64,000 nucleotides of DNA from positions 1 to 64,000 of the IMG/VR virus record IMGVR_UViG_3300025389_001023; one strand, given 5' to 3'. Numbering within the stretch: position 1 is the stretch's first letter; the number at the start of each line of letters is the position of its first letter. The notes under the pieces were generated by a model. It ran no database searches, was not told where the DNA came from, and saw only the letters and a program-made list of their open reading frames with translations. This document shows positions 36,659-58,073 of the stretch, piece after piece. This stretch comes from a virus (lineage: Duplodnaviria > Caudoviricetes). The position numbers and the translations under genes were made by a program.

Positions 36659-36794
36659 GGATACTTTCCTTAAAAATTATATTATATATTGTTTTATAGC
36701 AAAATCAAAAGAAATAGGATAAATGCCATGATCGGATGACCAAATAATAGAAAAAATATTATGGCCATTGTGCCATAAAATGCACGGTCATCAC

Positions 36795-36992
36795 TCATAA
36801 TTCAACTCCAAAATGTTTTCGAATAGCCCTGCCTGCCGTGTCCCAATCTTCGCCGGCAATATCAGCACACTCACGTATAATCAGTTCAGCAAATTTTTTG
36901 TTATATTCTTTTATCCAATCCTCAACGCCCAAGGTATCTGTTGGGATACTTTTGGCAGCTTGTTCGGAAAATTCTTGAATTATGTCGTTCAT
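36795..36992 (-). CDS. MNE...KFAELI...HFGVE family protein
   Basis: KKFAELIIREC...IRKHFGVEL. Confidence 0.75.
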   Translation of the reverse strand: MNDIIQEFSEQAAKSIPTDTLGVEDWIKEYNKKFAELIIRECADIAGEDWDTAGRAIRKHFGVEL

Positions 36993-37216
36993 ATAATTCT
37001 TCCCAATCCACAGTAAATTAATTGATCCAATTCATATTGATAGTCTAAACCATTCCTACGCTTATGATAAATGGTAACAAGTAATTCTGTGGTAATTGAC
37101 CTATCAACAAGGCCAAGACCCCGAAGTTCCATTTCGTCTAAAATTTCCTCATCATCAAAGTCTGCTAAATCAACATCGATTTCGACTTCTTTATAAACAG
37201 ATTGATATCTACTCAT
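36989..37216 (-). CDS. Hypothetical protein (array cargo)
   Basis: ATGA-coupled to both neighbours. Confidence 0.65.
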   Translation of the reverse strand: MSRYQSVYKEVEIDVDLADFDDEEILDEMELRGLGLVDRSITTELLVTIYHKRRNGLDYQYELDQLIYCGLGRII

Positions 37217-37434
37217 TCTTCAACTCCAAAATGTGCTCGAATAAATTTACTCACATAAGAATCCATGTCTGCTCGTTCTACTTCATCAGCAATATTACAA
37301 CATTCTTGAACCAGCAACTCGGCAAACTCTCTTAACACCTCAGTAACATTTGATTCTGGAGCAAGTATTTCACGCCTACTTTCAGAAACATAAAAGCCGG
37401 CTTGTTCGGCAAGTGTGTTAAATCGTTCGTTCAT
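37213..37434 (-). CDS. MNE...FAEL...HFGVEE family protein
   Basis: MNERF..LAEQAG...FAELLVQEC...HFGVEE. Confidence 0.8.
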   Translation of the reverse strand: MNERFNTLAEQAGFYVSESRREILAPESNVTEVLREFAELLVQECCNIADEVERADMDSYVSKFIRAHFGVEE

Positions 37435-37547
37435 CTGCCATCCTTAGCATCATTATAACCAATCAGATAACCCATCACCAATGCAAACAACATACCCGCA
37501 ATAGCAATGGCTGTGCCAATGATTGGATCCCAATTAAATTCATTCAT
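37431..37547 (-). CDS. Small single-TM protein (array cargo)
   Basis: MNEFNWDPIIGTAIAIAGMLFALVMGYLIGY; likely start at 37547. Confidence 0.55.
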   Translation of the reverse strand: MNEFNWDPIIGTAIAIAGMLFALVMGYLIGYNDAKDGR

Positions 37548-37716
37548 GCCGGTCCTTTTCCCAAGGGGTAAATTCGTATCTGTAAATTGGTAACAGGCCA
37601 AACAACCATGTACCAACCTTTACTTGTTTTAATTCTCTATGCTCAACTTCGGGCCGGTATTGGTCTGGGGTGTTCCTGATTCTCGTGAAGTCATCTTGGA
37701 AATTTGTTAGGTTCAT
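37540..37716 (-). CDS. Small hypothetical protein (array cargo)
   Basis: 58-aa ORF MNLTNFQDD...PWEKDRHE read manually; ATGA-coupled to the upstream gene. Confidence 0.55.
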   Translation of the reverse strand: MNLTNFQDDFTRIRNTPDQYRPEVEHRELKQVKVGTWLFGLLPIYRYEFTPWEKDRHE

Positions 37717-37961
37717 TGTTCGACTCCGAAATGTTCTCTAATTCCACTAATCATCTTTTCACAAGCACGGTCATACCCAATAACATAATGTGTATCAGTT
37801 GCTGGTTCCCCTCTAACCTCAAAGGCAATGTCTAAACAGTCTCTGACAATCAACTCGGCGAACTTTTGTTGTGCCGGAGTTAATGTAGTCCTGTCGAAGC
37901 CATTATACTCTGCGACAATCAGACCAGCCTGTACCGCAAGTTGTGTAAATCGTTCGTTCAT
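37713..37961 (-). CDS. MNER...KFAELIV...HFGVE family protein
   Basis: Family motifs present. Confidence 0.8.
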   Translation of the reverse strand: MNERFTQLAVQAGLIVAEYNGFDRTTLTPAQQKFAELIVRDCLDIAFEVRGEPATDTHYVIGYDRACEKMISGIREHFGVEQ

Positions 37962-38197
37962 TCTTCAACTCCGAAATGTTCTTTAATTGCTGTTTTAATA
38001 CTTTCTGCCTTGACCCACATTCCCATATCATACTCGTCATGCTCATCATCGTTAGATTCATGTTCACAAAATTTGACACATTCTAGCACAATCAACTCGG
38101 CGAACTTTTCTTTATTGAAATTATCATAACTTACTCCCCACTTATGTTCTTCGATAGTAGTGGCTTGCTTAACAAGTTCTCGAATTCGTTCGTTCAT
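37958..38197 (-). CDS. MNER...KFAELIV...HFGVEE family protein
   Basis: Family motifs present. Confidence 0.8.
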   Translation of the reverse strand: MNERIRELVKQATTIEEHKWGVSYDNFNKEKFAELIVLECVKFCEHESNDDEHDEYDMGMWVKAESIKTAIKEHFGVEE

Positions 38198-38200
38198 TCT

Positions 38201-38314
38201 TCAACTCCGAAATGTTCTTTTAAGTATATTACTAATGCCAACAAATACAAAAATAATTGGCAAAACTAATAAACCAATAACGACCATCCACCAAGGCATA
38301 TCTCGTTCGTTCAT
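38201..38314 (-). CDS. 37-aa single-TM peptide between two repeats
   Basis: MNERDMPWWMVVIGLLVLPIIFVFVGISNILKRTFRS read manually. Confidence 0.6.
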   Translation of the reverse strand: MNERDMPWWMVVIGLLVLPIIFVFVGISNILKRTFRS

Positions 38315-38571
38315 TCTTCAACTCCGAAATGTTGTTTAATCTGGTCAATACATTGAGAACCACCGTTAAGCCAAGTGTCAACTGATTTAGGAACAGGATC
38401 ACTAATAACTTGTTCACAACATCCAATACATTCTTTCACAATCAACTCGGCGAACTTTTCTTTGTCAAAATATTCTACTTGTTCTATGTAACCTTTACCT
38501 CTGTAACCTTCATGATTCATGGAGAGAGTTGAAGTAGCCTGTTCAGCAAGTTCTTTAATTCGTTCGTTCAT
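38311..38571 (-). CDS. MNER...KFAELIV...HFGVEE family protein
   Basis: Family motifs present. Confidence 0.8.
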   Translation of the reverse strand: MNERIKELAEQATSTLSMNHEGYRGKGYIEQVEYFDKEKFAELIVKECIGCCEQVISDPVPKSVDTWLNGGSQCIDQIKQHFGVEE

Positions 38572-38786
38572 TCTTCAACTCCGAAATGTGTTAAAATATT
38601 TCCACCAATCCACTCACACTTATTCTCATCCGCAAGGTCAGCAACTTTAGCACATTCCTTGACAATCAATTCGGCAAACTTTTCATCACGAATACGATTA
38701 TATCTCACAATCTCTCTAAGGTCAGGTTCTATAACCCTAGCTAACGCATCAGCTTGTTTGGTTAATTTATAAATTAGTTCATTCAT
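38568..38786 (-). CDS. MNE...KFAELIV...HFGVEE family protein
   Basis: Family motifs; coupled to the ligase stop. Confidence 0.8.
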   Translation of the reverse strand: MNELIYKLTKQADALARVIEPDLREIVRYNRIRDEKFAELIVKECAKVADLADENKCEWIGGNILTHFGVEE

Positions 38787-40129
38787 TTATCGTCCCTAAA
38801 TCTTACAAATCGAGGGAAACGCAAACTGTATGTACCATCTTGATTTTGCGTAATCACATCACACAAGATTTCAGCAGTACGACCAATAACACTATTGCTA
38901 TTAGCCCAATAGTCATCACGATCCTCGTCACTAAAGCCACTACCCACATTGACAGTAATTTCTTTACCATCATCAACGCCTTGACATACTAGTGCACCTA
39001 GACGACCTACATTTCGACCAGTCCCCTCTTCAACACCAATCACTTGTAGATCAACACTTAGTGTAGGTTTCCATTTCATCCAAAATGTATTACGCTTACA
39101 CTCGTAAGGTGCATCAACATTCTTAATCATAATACCTTCGAATCCTGCGTTAACATTATCTTTAGCATAACGCTCTAGTTGATTTTTACCTTCTGCGGTG
39201 TCTAAGTCAACCATGATGTGTGGCAGTAACTCAACATTAGGCATTGTATCAATAACAGGACGCATTGCCTCAAGCAAATTAATACGTTTGCTCAATTGTG
39301 CATTCCAATATCCTCTGCGAAAATCTTGTAATGGGATAATGTCAAAAATATTGAACACACTATCATCAGCCTGCACATCAGTTTTGCGGCGTGCTTGTCG
39401 CATGAGTTCTTGGAATGTATTGCCAATCACTTCACCGTCAAGTACAAAGCCATCGATTAGTCCACGACCTTGATCCGTACCACGTGTAGCTCTACAAATT
39501 TTGGCATAATTGTTTTCTACTTGTTCTTCAATGTGTCTAAAGTTTTCAAACACCTTACCATTGCGACTGTAACAAATTGTAGTCATGCCATTATCGCTAG
39601 GGATAACAACAAGCAATACACGAACACCATCTAGCTTAGGCTCTAGACGTTTAGTACCCTTCATCTCGGGGCGACCTTCACTATTGGTTGCAAGTTGACA
39701 ACCAAACACTGGAATCTCGTAATCAGTTTTTTTACAAATTTTATTGATAGTCTTGTCACTAATACCTGCACGTAAGTCACGGCGAATAACAGGAGCACAA
39801 AATGTATTCCATTCGTTACTATCAAAACGTTCACTCATTTCTTGGATAGCATCACGTGCGGCATGACCAGTTAACCCACGTTGACCTAACTCACTCAACA
39901 ACTGATTAAAGTCTTCCCAAGGATTTTCTGCATCAACAATGCCAACTGTATCAGGCACTTGTTTAACACCAAACGTCACATAAGGATTATAGCAAACTTT
40001 GGTTAATGTTAAAAAATTAATAGCATTTGTGCTACCAAGGACACTTGCCTCAAGCGCCTGTTTAAGTACATCTTCTTTGTGAAGCCTGCTATCACTTTCA
40101 TTTAATTTTTTAATCCAACTTGCTGACAT
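38783..40129 (-). CDS. lig: ATP-dependent DNA ligase
   Basis: EPKLDGVR, LDGE, FDII, EGIMIK, WMKWK, VGSGFSD, SLRFPRF..RDDK. Confidence 0.96.
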   Translation of the reverse strand: MSASWIKKLNESDSRLHKEDVLKQALEASVLGSTNAINFLTLTKVCYNPYVTFGVKQVPDTVGIVDAENPWEDFNQLLSELGQRGLTGHAARDAIQEMSERFDSNEWNTFCAPVIRRDLRAGISDKTINKICKKTDYEIPVFGCQLATNSEGRPEMKGTKRLEPKLDGVRVLLVVIPSDNGMTTICYSRNGKVFENFRHIEEQVENNYAKICRATRGTDQGRGLIDGFVLDGEVIGNTFQELMRQARRKTDVQADDSVFNIFDIIPLQDFRRGYWNAQLSKRINLLEAMRPVIDTMPNVELLPHIMVDLDTAEGKNQLERYAKDNVNAGFEGIMIKNVDAPYECKRNTFWMKWKPTLSVDLQVIGVEEGTGRNVGRLGALVCQGVDDGKEITVNVGSGFSDEDRDDYWANSNSVIGRTAEILCDVITQNQDGTYSLRFPRFVRFRDDK

Positions 40130-55408: not shown

Positions 55409-56235
55409 ACTTTTAGTAACTCTTCCATAGTGTAGAGATTTCTCATATAGGGCGATACATCTTTTAATACATAATAATCGATGTCGCCCTTTCTTCTTGG
55501 GCCTACTTTTGTAAGTAAATCCTTGTTAGGAATGTTATTGACTTCTCTAAACATCTTTACAATCTCACCAACGCTATAACCTACACCATGACCCAAGCAT
55601 TCAATTTGATTTGCAGGGTTTCCGATTGCTGTACGTAATGCATCACATACTTCATTAACATGAACATAGTCACGCACACATGTGCCGTCTACTGTGTCAT
55701 AATCATTACCATTGATGGTAAAATACCCTTGTTCACGTGCCTTCATTAAGTTGTACATCAATCCATCAGGGTTAGTTGGTTGATAGCCATCACTACCAAT
55801 CACGTTATAGAATCTAAAGATTGTATATGGTGTGGGTTTATGTTGTGTATAAAACTCACGTATCACATCTTCTGCCGCACGTTTGCTTACACCATATGGA
55901 CTAACACAATGTTCTGCGGCACCTGTACTTGCAAAGATAAAGTTTTTTGTTTTAATCTTATTGATTACATTCATAGTACCATTTAAGTTAGTGATGTAGT
56001 ATGTTAATGGTTGTTTTTCACTTTCACCTACATTAACCAATCCTGCTAAATGAATGACACAATCAAATTCTTCTTCGATAGCAAATTGTTTTCTAATATC
56101 AATATGATAATGATTTTTTACTGGATGCTGTGGTGCACGAAAATCTAATCCATATACCTCACAATCACTTTCTAACATTTTAGTTAGATGACTACCAATG
56201 TAACCGCTGTTACCTGTGATTAAAACCTTTTTCAT
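55405..56235 (-). CDS. galE: NAD-dependent epimerase (UDP-glucose 4-epimerase-like)
   Basis: TGNSGYIGSH, HLAG, YGVSK, RFYNV and DGTCVRDYVHV. Confidence 0.88.
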   Translation of the reverse strand: MKKVLITGNSGYIGSHLTKMLESDCEVYGLDFRAPQHPVKNHYHIDIRKQFAIEEEFDCVIHLAGLVNVGESEKQPLTYYITNLNGTMNVINKIKTKNFIFASTGAAEHCVSPYGVSKRAAEDVIREFYTQHKPTPYTIFRFYNVIGSDGYQPTNPDGLMYNLMKAREQGYFTINGNDYDTVDGTCVRDYVHVNEVCDALRTAIGNPANQIECLGHGVGYSVGEIVKMFREVNNIPNKDLLTKVGPRRKGDIDYYVLKDVSPYMRNLYTMEELLKV

Positions 56236-57569
56236 TATAATCCTTCAAATAGTGACAGACCAGTAGCCTCTTCCACGGGTTCAAAGCTAGGGTCTTTTGT
56301 TAAGTATGTGTTATCGTCTGTGTATATAATACGGAACTTATGTTTATTTGTCAATACACTACGGATATCATCAATACAAATTACTTTACGATTTAAACTT
56401 TTAATAAAGTTGTCAACGGTGATAGTAGTTTCTTCACAAATTTTTGCTGTATTGGTAGTAGACTGTTTACCATTAAAATCATTAAAGCAAACGTTCCATT
56501 TATGAAATACATCTTTTTCCAAACTAACTGAATGGTCCAGTGATCCTTTATTATACCAATCATTACTAGTTACAAACATATCATACGCACCTTTAACATC
56601 AGATGCCATAGATTTTTTGTTTGTCTCAAAGAAAAAATGTCCATCAAAGTTTTTAGTCCAACGTTGATTTTCTAAACAGAAAGTGGGTAGTTGTGTAATC
56701 TGCTCATAAAATGCCATACCATAGCTTTCAACTGTGCTAGGATTAAACGCAACTCTACAACTTGTAATGAAGTCTACTTTTTCTTTACCAATGATACTTT
56801 CTTTAATGATATAATCAACACCAATCTTTTTTAATCTGTCTTCAAATTTTTTAGCACCATTGCTATTGGTCATTACTCTTGCAGGTAAGTTGGTCTGTTC
56901 AATAAGTTCCAAGTATAATTCAGGATTCTTACCTTCTTCCCAACGACCGACAAACAATACACCTTCACGTGGTTTATTGTGTTCTTCTAATAATGATTGT
57001 TCTGTAATAGGAATAGGCAAATGATAAGCATTATCAAACTGTAATTGATTAAACTTGCTTTGTGTTCCTATAAACACATTGTCAGTTTGTAACTGTTGTC
57101 TCATTAATACATTGGTATTATACAAGAATGGATTTTTAGTATCTTTAAAAATCTGACTTTCCAAATGAGTATACGCAATGATTTGAATGCAGTCATCAAG
57201 CCCCATTGTACTTGCTACTTGTACAGTTTCATATGTGTTGCAAACAAATGCATCATACAAGTTATGTTCCAATGCCTCTACAATAGCATTTCGAAAGTTA
57301 GCCATACGCTCATAACAAAATGTATCTCCATACATAAAGATACTGCTATGGTCGGTATACTTTAATGATTCAACTGGGGCAATGATATTTGCTTTTAATG
57401 ATTTAACAAACTCAGTATTTTGTGGTTGTTTGTCTGTAATGATATCAACCTTGACACCATGACTATCCATAAGTTCACAAAAACTTCTAGCAAATTGACC
57501 AATACCACCATGTGGAATTAATGTTTGATAGCTAACTAAAAAACCAATGCGTTTACTGTACGTTCTCAT
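56235..57569 (-). CDS. GT-B glycosyltransferase (GT4-like)
   Basis: PHGGIG, LFVGRWEEGKNP and PSTVESYGMAFYE. Confidence 0.85.
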   Translation of the reverse strand: MRTYSKRIGFLVSYQTLIPHGGIGQFARSFCELMDSHGVKVDIITDKQPQNTEFVKSLKANIIAPVESLKYTDHSSIFMYGDTFCYERMANFRNAIVEALEHNLYDAFVCNTYETVQVASTMGLDDCIQIIAYTHLESQIFKDTKNPFLYNTNVLMRQQLQTDNVFIGTQSKFNQLQFDNAYHLPIPITEQSLLEEHNKPREGVLFVGRWEEGKNPELYLELIEQTNLPARVMTNSNGAKKFEDRLKKIGVDYIIKESIIGKEKVDFITSCRVAFNPSTVESYGMAFYEQITQLPTFCLENQRWTKNFDGHFFFETNKKSMASDVKGAYDMFVTSNDWYNKGSLDHSVSLEKDVFHKWNVCFNDFNGKQSTTNTAKICEETTITVDNFIKSLNRKVICIDDIRSVLTNKHKFRIIYTDDNTYLTKDPSFEPVEEATGLSLFEGL

Positions 57570-57570
57570 T

Positions 57571-57831
57571 TTAATTATATTTTATATTAAACTTATCTTT
57601 AATGCTTTTTACACAACGTTGTTTGGTTCCTTCAATCATGCTTTTATCATAGGTTGTGTATGTTAACTCTGTTACCAGTGTTTCATTTATAGCATCAATA
57701 CATTCTTTGATAAGCAATTCTGCAAAATCTTGTAATTTTTTATCACTAACATCTTCGCCATAAAAATCACCGTCATCAGCTACACCATAAAAGCCTGCTC
57801 GTTCACCTAATTGTTTAATTTTTTCATTCAT
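57571..57831 (-). CDS. Orphan member of the MNE...FAELLI..EC family
   Basis: MNEKIKQLGERAG...FAELLIKEC...IKDKFNI. Confidence 0.7.
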   Translation of the reverse strand: MNEKIKQLGERAGFYGVADDGDFYGEDVSDKKLQDFAELLIKECIDAINETLVTELTYTTYDKSMIEGTKQRCVKSIKDKFNIKYN

Positions 57832-58073
57832 TTTTTTAATTTCCATATAATATGTTCAAGTTTATCATGCCATCTATGCTCAAACAAAGGTTCAGTAAGA
57901 CCTGTATACAATGCAGTAACTTGGTAACCATACTTTAACCAAATGCGCTTACCAGATATGTCACATGTTTTTGGTAACCACGCAAATTTTAATTGAGCAC
58001 CTATATACTTATTATAAAATAAATCATCAAATGAAGCCGTTTGGTAATTAGCACCCATCATTATGTTCCCCAC
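57828..58073 (-). CDS. Hypothetical protein
   Basis: FAWLP..C..SGKRIWLK. Confidence 0.6.
   Translation of the reverse strand: MGNIMMGANYQTASFDDLFYNKYIGAQLKFAWLPKTCDISGKRIWLKYGYQVTALYTGLTEPLFEHRWHDKLEHIIWKLKK

Follow-up and report, generated by a model that had tools for sequence, protein, structure and literature searches.

The virus record IMGVR_UViG_3300025389_001023 (Duplodnaviria; Caudoviricetes) carries, on its minus strand and downstream of a DNA ligase gene, an array of ten small genes at positions 36795-38786, in which one short sequence recurs at gene boundaries. The stretch that we analyzed, referred to here as the window, comprises positions 1 to 64,000 of this 114.5 kb record. 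Such an arrangement raises the question of what the repeat is for. It may simply reflect the conserved ends of a duplicated protein family, or it may act as DNA, both as a tract of homology at which genes are exchanged and as a joint through which they are expressed, as an initial annotation made from the sequence alone had proposed. Comparative patterns, together with the presence of the repeat on rhodanese and PsiE genes, support that proposal. We conclude that the locus is probably an array shuffled by recombination at two constant tracts: the junction between genes, J, which would also serve as an expression joint, and a block in the middle of the family genes, M. The M block, which the initial annotation had overlooked, is an equally used point of exchange.

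The repeat joins the genes of a translationally coupled operon

The minus-strand 30-mer ACATTTCGGAGTTGAAGAATGAACGAACGA was recovered in four exact copies, at 37950, 38186, 38303, and 38560, just where it had first been described, and it had no exact match in 100 shuffled sequences. The looser 15-mer CATTTYGGAGTYGAA has seven sites across the whole record, all seven of them within the array. Half copies, which had also been described, were found by a repeat search: the C-terminal half occurs seven times (family D1, at 36793, 37211, 37711, 37956, 38192, 38309, and 38566) and the N-terminal half six times (family D3). The ten small genes are indeed ten open reading frames (ORFs) arranged head to tail on the minus strand, six of them paralogs of one family and four of them non-family genes. 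Together with the ligase gene at the 5' end and a 34-codon transmembrane (TM) gene at the 3' end, they form a chain of twelve genes:

38783-40129, minus strand: ATP-dependent DNA ligase, 448 aa; the operon begins with this gene, whose stop overlaps the F72 start (ATGA)
38568-38786, minus strand: F72, family member 1, 72 aa (ORF; family hidden Markov model, HMM)
38311-38571, minus strand: F86, family member 2, 86 aa (ORF; family HMM; AlphaFold2, AF2, model)
38201-38314, minus strand: TM37, 37-aa TM mini-gene, non-family cargo with exact J copies on both sides
37958-38197, minus strand: F79, family member 3, 79 aa, a clear chimera (half-gene matches; AF2 model)
37713-37961, minus strand: F82, family member 4, 82 aa (ORF; family HMM)
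37540-37716, minus strand: c58, 58-aa non-family cargo, starting at a degenerate J (..GGAGTCGAACAATGAACC..)
37431-37547, minus strand: TM37b, 38-aa TM mini-gene, the partner of c58
37213-37434, minus strand: F73, family member 5, 73 aa, which begins with the N-terminal half of J and ends with the C-terminal half
36989-37216, minus strand: c75, 75-aa non-family cargo, cluster c34 (18 tblastn matches)
36795-36992, minus strand: F65, family member 6, 65 aa, more diverged than any other array copy
36694-36798, minus strand: TM34, 34-aa TM mini-gene, last gene of the operon, just beyond the span first reported

Each J runs from the C block of one gene into the N block of its downstream neighbor and includes a GGAG ribosome site and an ATGA overlap of stop and start codons. 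It is about 57 nt long, formed by fusion in tandem copies (family D4), and the four junctions that hold the exact 30-mer are as follows:

38533-38589, minus strand: J between F72 and F86 (exact 30-mer at 38560-38589; family D4)
38303-38332, minus strand: J between F86 and TM37 (exact 30-mer)
38186-38215, minus strand: J between TM37 and F79 (exact 30-mer)
37950-37979, minus strand: J between F79 and F82 (exact 30-mer)

When ten junctions were aligned, from ligase/F72 through F65/TM34, the ATGA columns were the only invariant ones; the eleventh junction, c58/TM37b, reads ATGAATGA. The GGAG is positioned 8 nt ahead of the ATGA overlap at every junction, and at other loci 185 of 252 family genes end in ATGA as well. 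The ligase gene heads a translationally coupled operon with eleven tiny genes downstream, namely the ten reported ones and TM34. Because J brings its own ribosome site and stop/start overlap, an insert between two J copies should be translated within the operon; judging from the sequence, any such segment would be read through coupling to its upstream neighbor.

The operon probably ends just past the array, where one further feature was found:

36681-36778, minus strand: terminator-like hairpin (36778-36759), then a promoter-like site (36708-36681); consensus matches only

The hairpin sits within TM34, the last TM mini-gene of the array, and the promoter-like site (TTGATT-16-TATAAT) precedes the gene for a 284-aa zinc-ribbon protein, a layout suggesting that the ligase-array transcription unit stops here. 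Between 35500 and 41000 we found 21 promoter-like sites, where shuffled sequence predicts 21.0, and none of them falls on a J copy.

The family proteins alternate constant blocks with variable modules

The initial annotation had described six paralogs with unrelated middles and four cargo genes. Its count was right, but the middles are not unrelated throughout, because they share the third constant block, M. The paralogs (72, 86, 79, 82, 73, and 65 aa) follow a common plan, N-V1-M-V2-C, in which the constant blocks N (MNERIxELxxQA), M ((E)KFAELIVxEC), and C (HFGVEE) are separated by the variable modules V1 and V2. M, too, is repeated as DNA, as a 43-nt family (D2) and a 61-nt family (D5):

38064-38106, minus strand: M block of F79 (..EKFAELIVxEC..), mid-gene exchange point (D2, D5; breakpoints)
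38638-38680, 38414-38456, 37822-37864, 37286-37328, and 36853-36895, minus strand: other M copies (D2, D5)

The M and J blocks also resemble each other as DNA, with the pattern GAAxxxTTCG--GAGTTG-------AAGAATG found at 38064-38106 and 38186-38215 and in other copies too. In a post hoc test, 0.3% of shuffles reached the local alignment score, and the two blocks share E[KH]F[AG] as protein. This resemblance could stem from an old internal duplication or from chance.

AF2 models of F79 (pLDDT 77) and F86 (pLDDT 85.7, pTM 0.70) have the same topology: a helix (N), a beta-hairpin (V1), a long helix (M), and a loop plus helix (V2 and C). The constant blocks are thus predicted to be three scaffold helices and the variable modules to be exposed inserts, V1 being modeled as the hairpin and V2 as the loop together with the beginning of the last helix. 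The conserved Cys of M and His of C may hint at metal binding or redox chemistry.

Halves of family genes are probably exchanged at M

We collected further loci that carry family genes, designated here by L and a number, with the exact 29-mer of J (L008-L126) or with peptide patterns from the blocks (L127-L206), and compared V1 and V2 in 153,735 gene pairs. Where V1 was at least 85% identical (163 pairs), V2 was also common to both genes in only 11 pairs and was less than 30% identical in 122. The same held in the other direction, in that V1 was unrelated in 104 of the 137 pairs with a common V2. Clustering of 555 genes gave 408 types of V1 and 406 types of V2, and modules that recurred had nearly always found a new partner; the eight genes of V1 cluster 0, for instance, have eight different V2 partners. 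We conclude that V1 and V2 assort almost independently.

Individual genes of the array display the same behavior. F72 shares its V1 (95% identical) with a gene of L207 whose V2 is unrelated, and its V2 (100% identical) with a gene of L132 whose V1 is unrelated, while the V1 and V2 of F86 each recur in other loci with different partners. The 3' half of F82 (37865-37712) is 91% identical to a gene of L209 to which the 5' half does not align, and the 3' half of F73 is 93% identical to a gene of L157. A clear chimera is F79, whose nucleotides 1-110 match an L039 gene at 110/110 and gene B of L008 at 109/110. In both comparisons the similarity is lost at once past AAGTTCGCCGAGTTGATTGT, which lies in the M block, and from that same M block onward the 3' half of F79 is about 95% identical to gene A of L008 and to a gene of L172.

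Among near-identical modules, 65-67% of codon differences are synonymous. The modules are therefore genuine coding units under purifying selection, and the excess of synonymous differences argues against junk sequence as well as against a mutagenic mechanism of the kind used by diversity-generating retroelements (DGRs).

Whole genes and unrelated cargo are probably exchanged at J

The ligase provided a means of comparing the array with its counterparts in related phages. Against the ligases of phages in culture (SPO1-like and Lysinibacillus phages) its identity reaches about 35% at most, and in IMG/VR it has 255 relatives, of which we kept 80 that are 78-96% identical (L207-L285). These relatives constitute a large uncultured freshwater phage clade. 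Some of them lie on contigs of 348-364 kb, and CheckV estimates the present record to be about 30% complete; the phage is therefore probably very large.

Fifty-six loci contained the complete interval between the ligase and the conserved c0/c1 genes, and neither the number nor the content of the genes within it is fixed, in agreement with what the initial annotation had anticipated. Family genes are absent from 33 of these loci, number one in 14, two in 4, and three in 2, and loci with four, five, and six family genes occur once each, the window being the six-gene locus. The interval ranges from 260 to 3982 bp, and its cargo clusters differ. The nearest relative, L207, with a ligase 96% identical at the protein level and about 83% as DNA, lacks the segment corresponding to window positions 38567-37245, and both J copies align to its breakpoint sequence. 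L157 has five array segments in common with the window (92-96% identity), but they are arranged differently; its similarity to the rest of the 114 kb record amounts to one 100-bp stretch at 73%. Thus, in L207, in the census, and in L157, the repeats flank genes that differ between related phages. The array need not adjoin a ligase at all: that of L138 lies next to a 5'-3' exonuclease homologue, on a contig (read as L008) with core genes about 72% identical and with a gene that matches the first 110 nt of F79 at 109/110.

Cargo genes move in the same manner. The c58 and TM37b genes form a two-gene unit that recurs at 98% and 92% identity in L117, L106, and L039/L157, where c58 is always followed by TM37b and the flanking family genes differ. 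The c75 gene is found in L157 at the opposite end of the array, TM34 has a 65% identical homologue in L207, and TM mini-genes resembling TM37 come after J in L099, L104, L114, and L153.

Beyond these cases, we counted 323 J-like sites with ATGA, of which 209 join two family genes, 57 lead from a non-family into a family gene, 33 lead from a family into a non-family gene, 4 join two non-family genes, and 20 run off the end of the locus. Two genes of recognizable families have taken on the same format. A rhodanese gene (L071:4101-4517, minus strand, 138 aa; PF00581, E value 5e-16) starts with MNERI, ends in ..GVEE, and has J on both sides. A PsiE-family gene (L031:2790-3209, minus strand, 139 aa; PF06146, E value 8.5e-18) starts with the exact 26-mer and with MNERI; PsiE is a phosphate-starvation-inducible membrane protein. 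Since both genes begin with J codons, they point to host-type genes having been taken into the cassette format.

TM37 is a special case, because the J at its 3' end is read out of frame. One extra A (AAAAGAA, versus AAAGAA in neighboring copies) gives the protein the terminus KRTFRS* in place of KEHFGVEE*. Contig L117 carries this frameshifted allele at 100% identity, and so it is not a one-off assembly error. We considered this gene as strong proof of selection on the DNA and dropped that claim, given that a single extra A explains the frame; what is left is modest evidence for DNA-level selection.

The blocks are conserved at silent sites

Codon usage allowed us to separate conservation of the DNA from that of the protein. 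To avoid ascertainment through DNA similarity, we restricted silent-site statistics to genes of loci fetched by protein patterns or through the ligase. Single codons predominated in the blocks far beyond their background usage: R4 was CGA in 85% of genes (background, 12%), A35 was GCC in 78% (19%), E36 was GAG in 84% (27%), L37 was TTG in 84% (26%), G77 was GGA in 93% (21%), and V78 was GTT in 91% (38%). In 12,956 gene pairs drawn from different loci and unrelated in both V1 and V2, codons for the same residue were identical at 65% in N, 70% in M, and 75% in C, compared with 41-46% predicted from background usage. Copies of J and M hardly differ as DNA, even at silent positions, so the annotation's expectation that the repeat is conserved beyond the protein level is borne out.

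This pattern could arise in other ways. The block nucleotides might be conserved mainly for a function of the RNA, with recombination as a by-product. Each junction might, for example, hold a translational operator or an RNase site, for which the targets of T4 RegA and RegB are the model, or translational coupling itself might have been optimized. Such a function would fit the invariant distance between GGAG and ATGA and the prevalence of ATGA endings in family genes elsewhere, as well as the finding that silent bias is strongest at the GGA GTT codons, which form the ribosome site. However, silent-site conservation is just as strong in the M block, for which no role in translation is obvious. 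The four J copies, folded with their flanks, were no more stable than shuffles (z of 0.10, -0.78, 0.59, and -0.41), and a search of Rfam at E values up to 1 returned one chance snoRNA match and nothing else. In addition, an RNA-level function alone does not account for the exchange of modules between diverged phages, and we regard it as an improbable explanation of the blocks.

Alternatively, the array may be an ordinary tandemly duplicated family, its blocks conserved for the protein alone and its DNA repeat devoid of any role in recombination or expression. Tandem paralogs are common in large phages, and because the blocks coincide with the three predicted scaffold helices, selection at the protein level is certainly present. 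Protein-level selection leaves several observations unexplained, though: codon choice at silent sites of the blocks is far less varied than in the background, V1 and V2 are independent of each other, the 110/110-nt identity of F79 stops abruptly at the M block, and J is also found on the rhodanese and PsiE genes and is retained where it is out of frame. On these grounds, we consider it very unlikely that the protein alone accounts for the repeat.

General homologous recombination as the proposed mechanism

We infer the recombination mechanism itself from these sequence comparisons, as we do the idea that conservation of the blocks is maintained by or for exchange. In the model we favor, the 20-57 nt tracts of J and M would act as homology for ordinary homologous recombination or copy-choice. 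Exchange could take place within an array, by unequal crossover, and also between co-infecting phages that are otherwise diverged. At M it would swap half-genes, V1 against V2, and at J it would add, delete, reorder, or replace whole genes, unrelated cargo included. Given that exchange involves two unrelated tracts, J and M, as well as any other place that offers homology, and that no integrase, hairpin, or promoter accompanies them, general homologous recombination is the simplest reading. A Chi-like hotspot, GAGTTGA, was considered and dropped, since its 12 gene-strand sites outside the array, versus 5-9 expected, represent no clear enrichment.

A dedicated, integron-like system of site-specific recombination would also yield cassettes that have no individual promoters, are bounded by a common sequence, and bring unrelated cargo, and its recombinase, recognizing J, might be encoded in the missing ~70% of the genome, considering how incomplete the record is. 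However, the absence of a recognizable integrase noted in the initial annotation extends to the entire 114.5 kb record, in which neither tyrosine nor serine recombinases were found (integrase/resolvase families PF00589 and PF00239, no match). J has no attC-type inverted repeat or hairpin, the array contains no inverted repeats of 12 nt or longer, and the unrelated M block within genes sees exchange equally often, which fits exchange driven by homology. We therefore judge a site-specific system to be highly unlikely.

That the mosaicism is largely an artefact of short-read assemblers joining strains at repeats of 20-57 nt we find scarcely credible: only metagenome contigs were compared, arrays of an exact 30-mer are hard to assemble, and the family is absent from cultured-phage records, but the exact tracts (20-36 nt) should be shorter than the usual final k-mers and far shorter than reads, the pattern recurs across hundreds of independent assemblies, the F79 protein is letter-for-letter the same on five contigs and the frameshifted TM37 is likewise identical in L117, and reading frames are intact, with the modules under purifying selection.

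Several points weigh against shuffling by recombination at J and M. No recombination event was observed, and recombination is read from comparative patterns. All of the relatives are metagenome assemblies, in which repeats can make chimeric contigs, and fetching loci by their blocks somewhat enriches for block conservation. Conservation at silent sites is partial (0.65-0.75), and the bias in the C block is due in part to the embedded GGAG ribosome site, which leaves the M block unexplained. A search of the 114 kb fragment returned no RecA/UvsX-type gene, and with ~30% of the genome in the record a recombinase could be encoded elsewhere. Finally, no database or fold match backs a function for the proteins. 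Taken with these points, the comparative evidence still leads us to consider recombination at J and M the probable origin of the array.

The array in relation to known modular systems

The closest parallel at the level of genes is found in T4-type phages, in which repeats in hyperplastic regions, known as PeSL (promoter-early stem-loop) cassettes, flank small ORFan genes (Arbiol et al. 2010, PMC2839356; Comeau et al. 2014, PMC4122927). A PeSL is an intergenic sigma-70 promoter plus terminator stem-loop, and mini-circles have been demonstrated (PMC2839356, PMC4122927). PeSL and J both mark insertions, deletions, and replacements between related phages, both carry expression signals, and homologous recombination between repeats has been proposed for both. 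Unlike PeSL, however, J has neither a sigma-70-type promoter nor a stable stem-loop, both of which we looked for. It is itself coding sequence that couples translation rather than transcription and leaves MNER and HFGVEE tags on its cargo, and the array has a second exchange block inside the gene. Only the hairpin and promoter-like site at 36681-36778 are loosely PeSL-like in composition. We do not label the phage T4-like, as gp20 gave no match in the fragment; gp23 gave none either, a result that is uninformative because the control genomes gave no match.

Within genes, the array is most reminiscent of the gp38 adhesins of T-even phages, in which glycine-rich motifs separate hypervariable segments (Trojet et al. 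2011, PMC3157838); conserved motifs in gp37 are credited to Tetart et al. 1996 and 1998, as cited in PMC3157838. In both systems conserved motifs form a structural core and at the same time provide exchange points that shuffle hypervariable segments, a likeness that does not imply membership. There is no relation in sequence or fold, and the genomic context here is one of ligase and replication genes, not of a tail fiber. The array proteins are 65-86 aa long, cytoplasmic-looking, and multi-copy, in contrast to a single-copy tail-fiber adhesin, and the unit of exchange here reaches whole genes and foreign cargo.

Integrons rely on attC sites and the IntI tyrosine recombinase. The array shares with them promoterless cassettes, unrelated cargo, a recurring boundary, and expression from upstream. 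It differs in that no integrase was found in the 114.5 kb record (~30% complete genome), nor any attC-like hairpin, and in that its boundary is coding sequence and a translational joint, with exchange taking place within genes as well. DGRs, for their part, also place hypervariable regions on a constant protein scaffold in phages. However, a search for reverse transcriptase (RVT_1) gave no match in the 114 kb record, there is no pair of template and variable repeats, and the variability consists of discrete, unalignable modules under purifying selection, not of adenine-directed point mutations. With the defining features of both systems searched for in the 114 kb record and not found, the array is neither an integron nor a DGR.

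The modular theory of phage evolution of Botstein reportedly invokes conserved linkers between modules, and in Neisseria the pilS/pilE mini-cassettes undergo segmental gene conversion. As in these two cases, constant tracts are interleaved with variable mini-cassettes that homologous recombination would reassort. The differences are that no layout of an expression locus and silent donors is visible, every copy looking expressed, and that exchange here is on a sub-gene scale and spans a community of diverged phages. We regard the array as a form of linker-mediated modular shuffling.

A large family in uncultured freshwater phages

The six array genes match the family HMM at E values of 1e-24 to 2e-33, figures that are circular because the HMM was built from the same six genes. 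They all have the three blocks in order, a length of roughly 60-110 aa, and two variable inserts. Independent support for family membership comes from a seventh gene in the window, from the 200 fetched loci, which together contain 726 members, a single 13 kb locus having as many as 14, and from the size of the family in database searches, which gave at least 1,867 clusters at 90% identity (among the candidates scored, one paralog serving as the query) and, at 50% identity, 6,999 clusters (E values up to 0.001, among 1.84 billion representatives). The exact J 29-mer is present in at least 119 IMG/VR contigs. The seventh gene of the window is the following:

57571-57846, minus strand: seventh family member, solitary and diverged, 91 aa as the ORF was called (family HMM)

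It matches the family HMM at E values of 3e-10 and about 1e-11, has differing ends (..KDKFNIKYN), and has no J. It lies directly downstream of a glycosyltransferase-like gene (56235-57569).

Family loci range from 34 to 50% GC, and most have no DNA similarity to the present genome. Members were found only in metagenome contigs and in freshwater metagenome-assembled genomes (MAGs), and cultured-phage records gave no family match by megablast of the array, tblastn of F86, or megablast of J. The MAGs (L286-L305) carry mutually inconsistent labels (Burkholderiaceae, Haliscomenobacter, Aquiluna, Bacteroidetes, Rhodoferax, and others), which probably point to mis-binned phage contigs, and we dropped them as a guide to the host.

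For the ten genes, searches of Pfam and PHROG gave nothing significant (best, phrog_14580 at an E value of 0.0025; Pfam E values of at least 0.1), and the best hit of a sequence-profile search of the PDB, at an E value of 0.026, was not meaningful. Neither AF2 model (F79, F86) had a Foldseek match in the PDB at an E value of 0.001 or below, and the best Z score in a wide VIA-align search, 5.2, is at the noise level for helical models. Matches in BFVD were solely uncharacterized proteins of uncultured phages, which are family members themselves, and those in the ESM Atlas were viral hypothetical proteins only. A literature search for HFGVEE and FAELIV returned 0 occurrences. At two loci, L286 (4137-4374) and L287 (5151-5364), small genes adjoining family members carry a variant, ..FAALVAAxERE..C....IRARGE.., that retains the MN..I..LA.QAG start and differs in the middle and end. 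The family may be part of a wider superfamily of phage mini-proteins.

Implications for phage evolution

As to what the proteins do, we can offer a tentative, low-confidence guess: they may be small binders, each with two exchangeable surfaces, that work on targets in the host. A more speculative and rather unlikely extension is that the blocks are an evolved, community-wide standard for exchange, in which expressed arrays double as donors in a combinatorial library. Lake phages would then keep building two-surface binders from a common pool, of which our sample alone contains about 400 V1 and about 400 V2 clusters, and would plug in foreign genes together with ready-made translation signals, all by general recombination. 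The resulting proteins would be adaptable binders against fast-evolving host targets such as defense systems, a functional parallel to antigenic-variation cassettes and DGRs.

The locus is a clean natural case of linker-mediated modular evolution below the level of the gene, and one in which the same linker that shifts whole genes also provides their translation signals. A family of about 7,000 clusters with no match in Pfam, the PDB, or the literature is a sizeable portion of phage dark matter, with an evolutionary logic that is testable, and the J/M design could serve phage engineering as a simple standard for shuffling and expression. Even if the proteins are merely dispensable, the locus still illustrates how tracts of 20-57 nt give structure to gene flow among phages that are only about 72% identical in their core genes. 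If the proteins turn out to be host-directed binders, the array would represent a new route to phage diversity.

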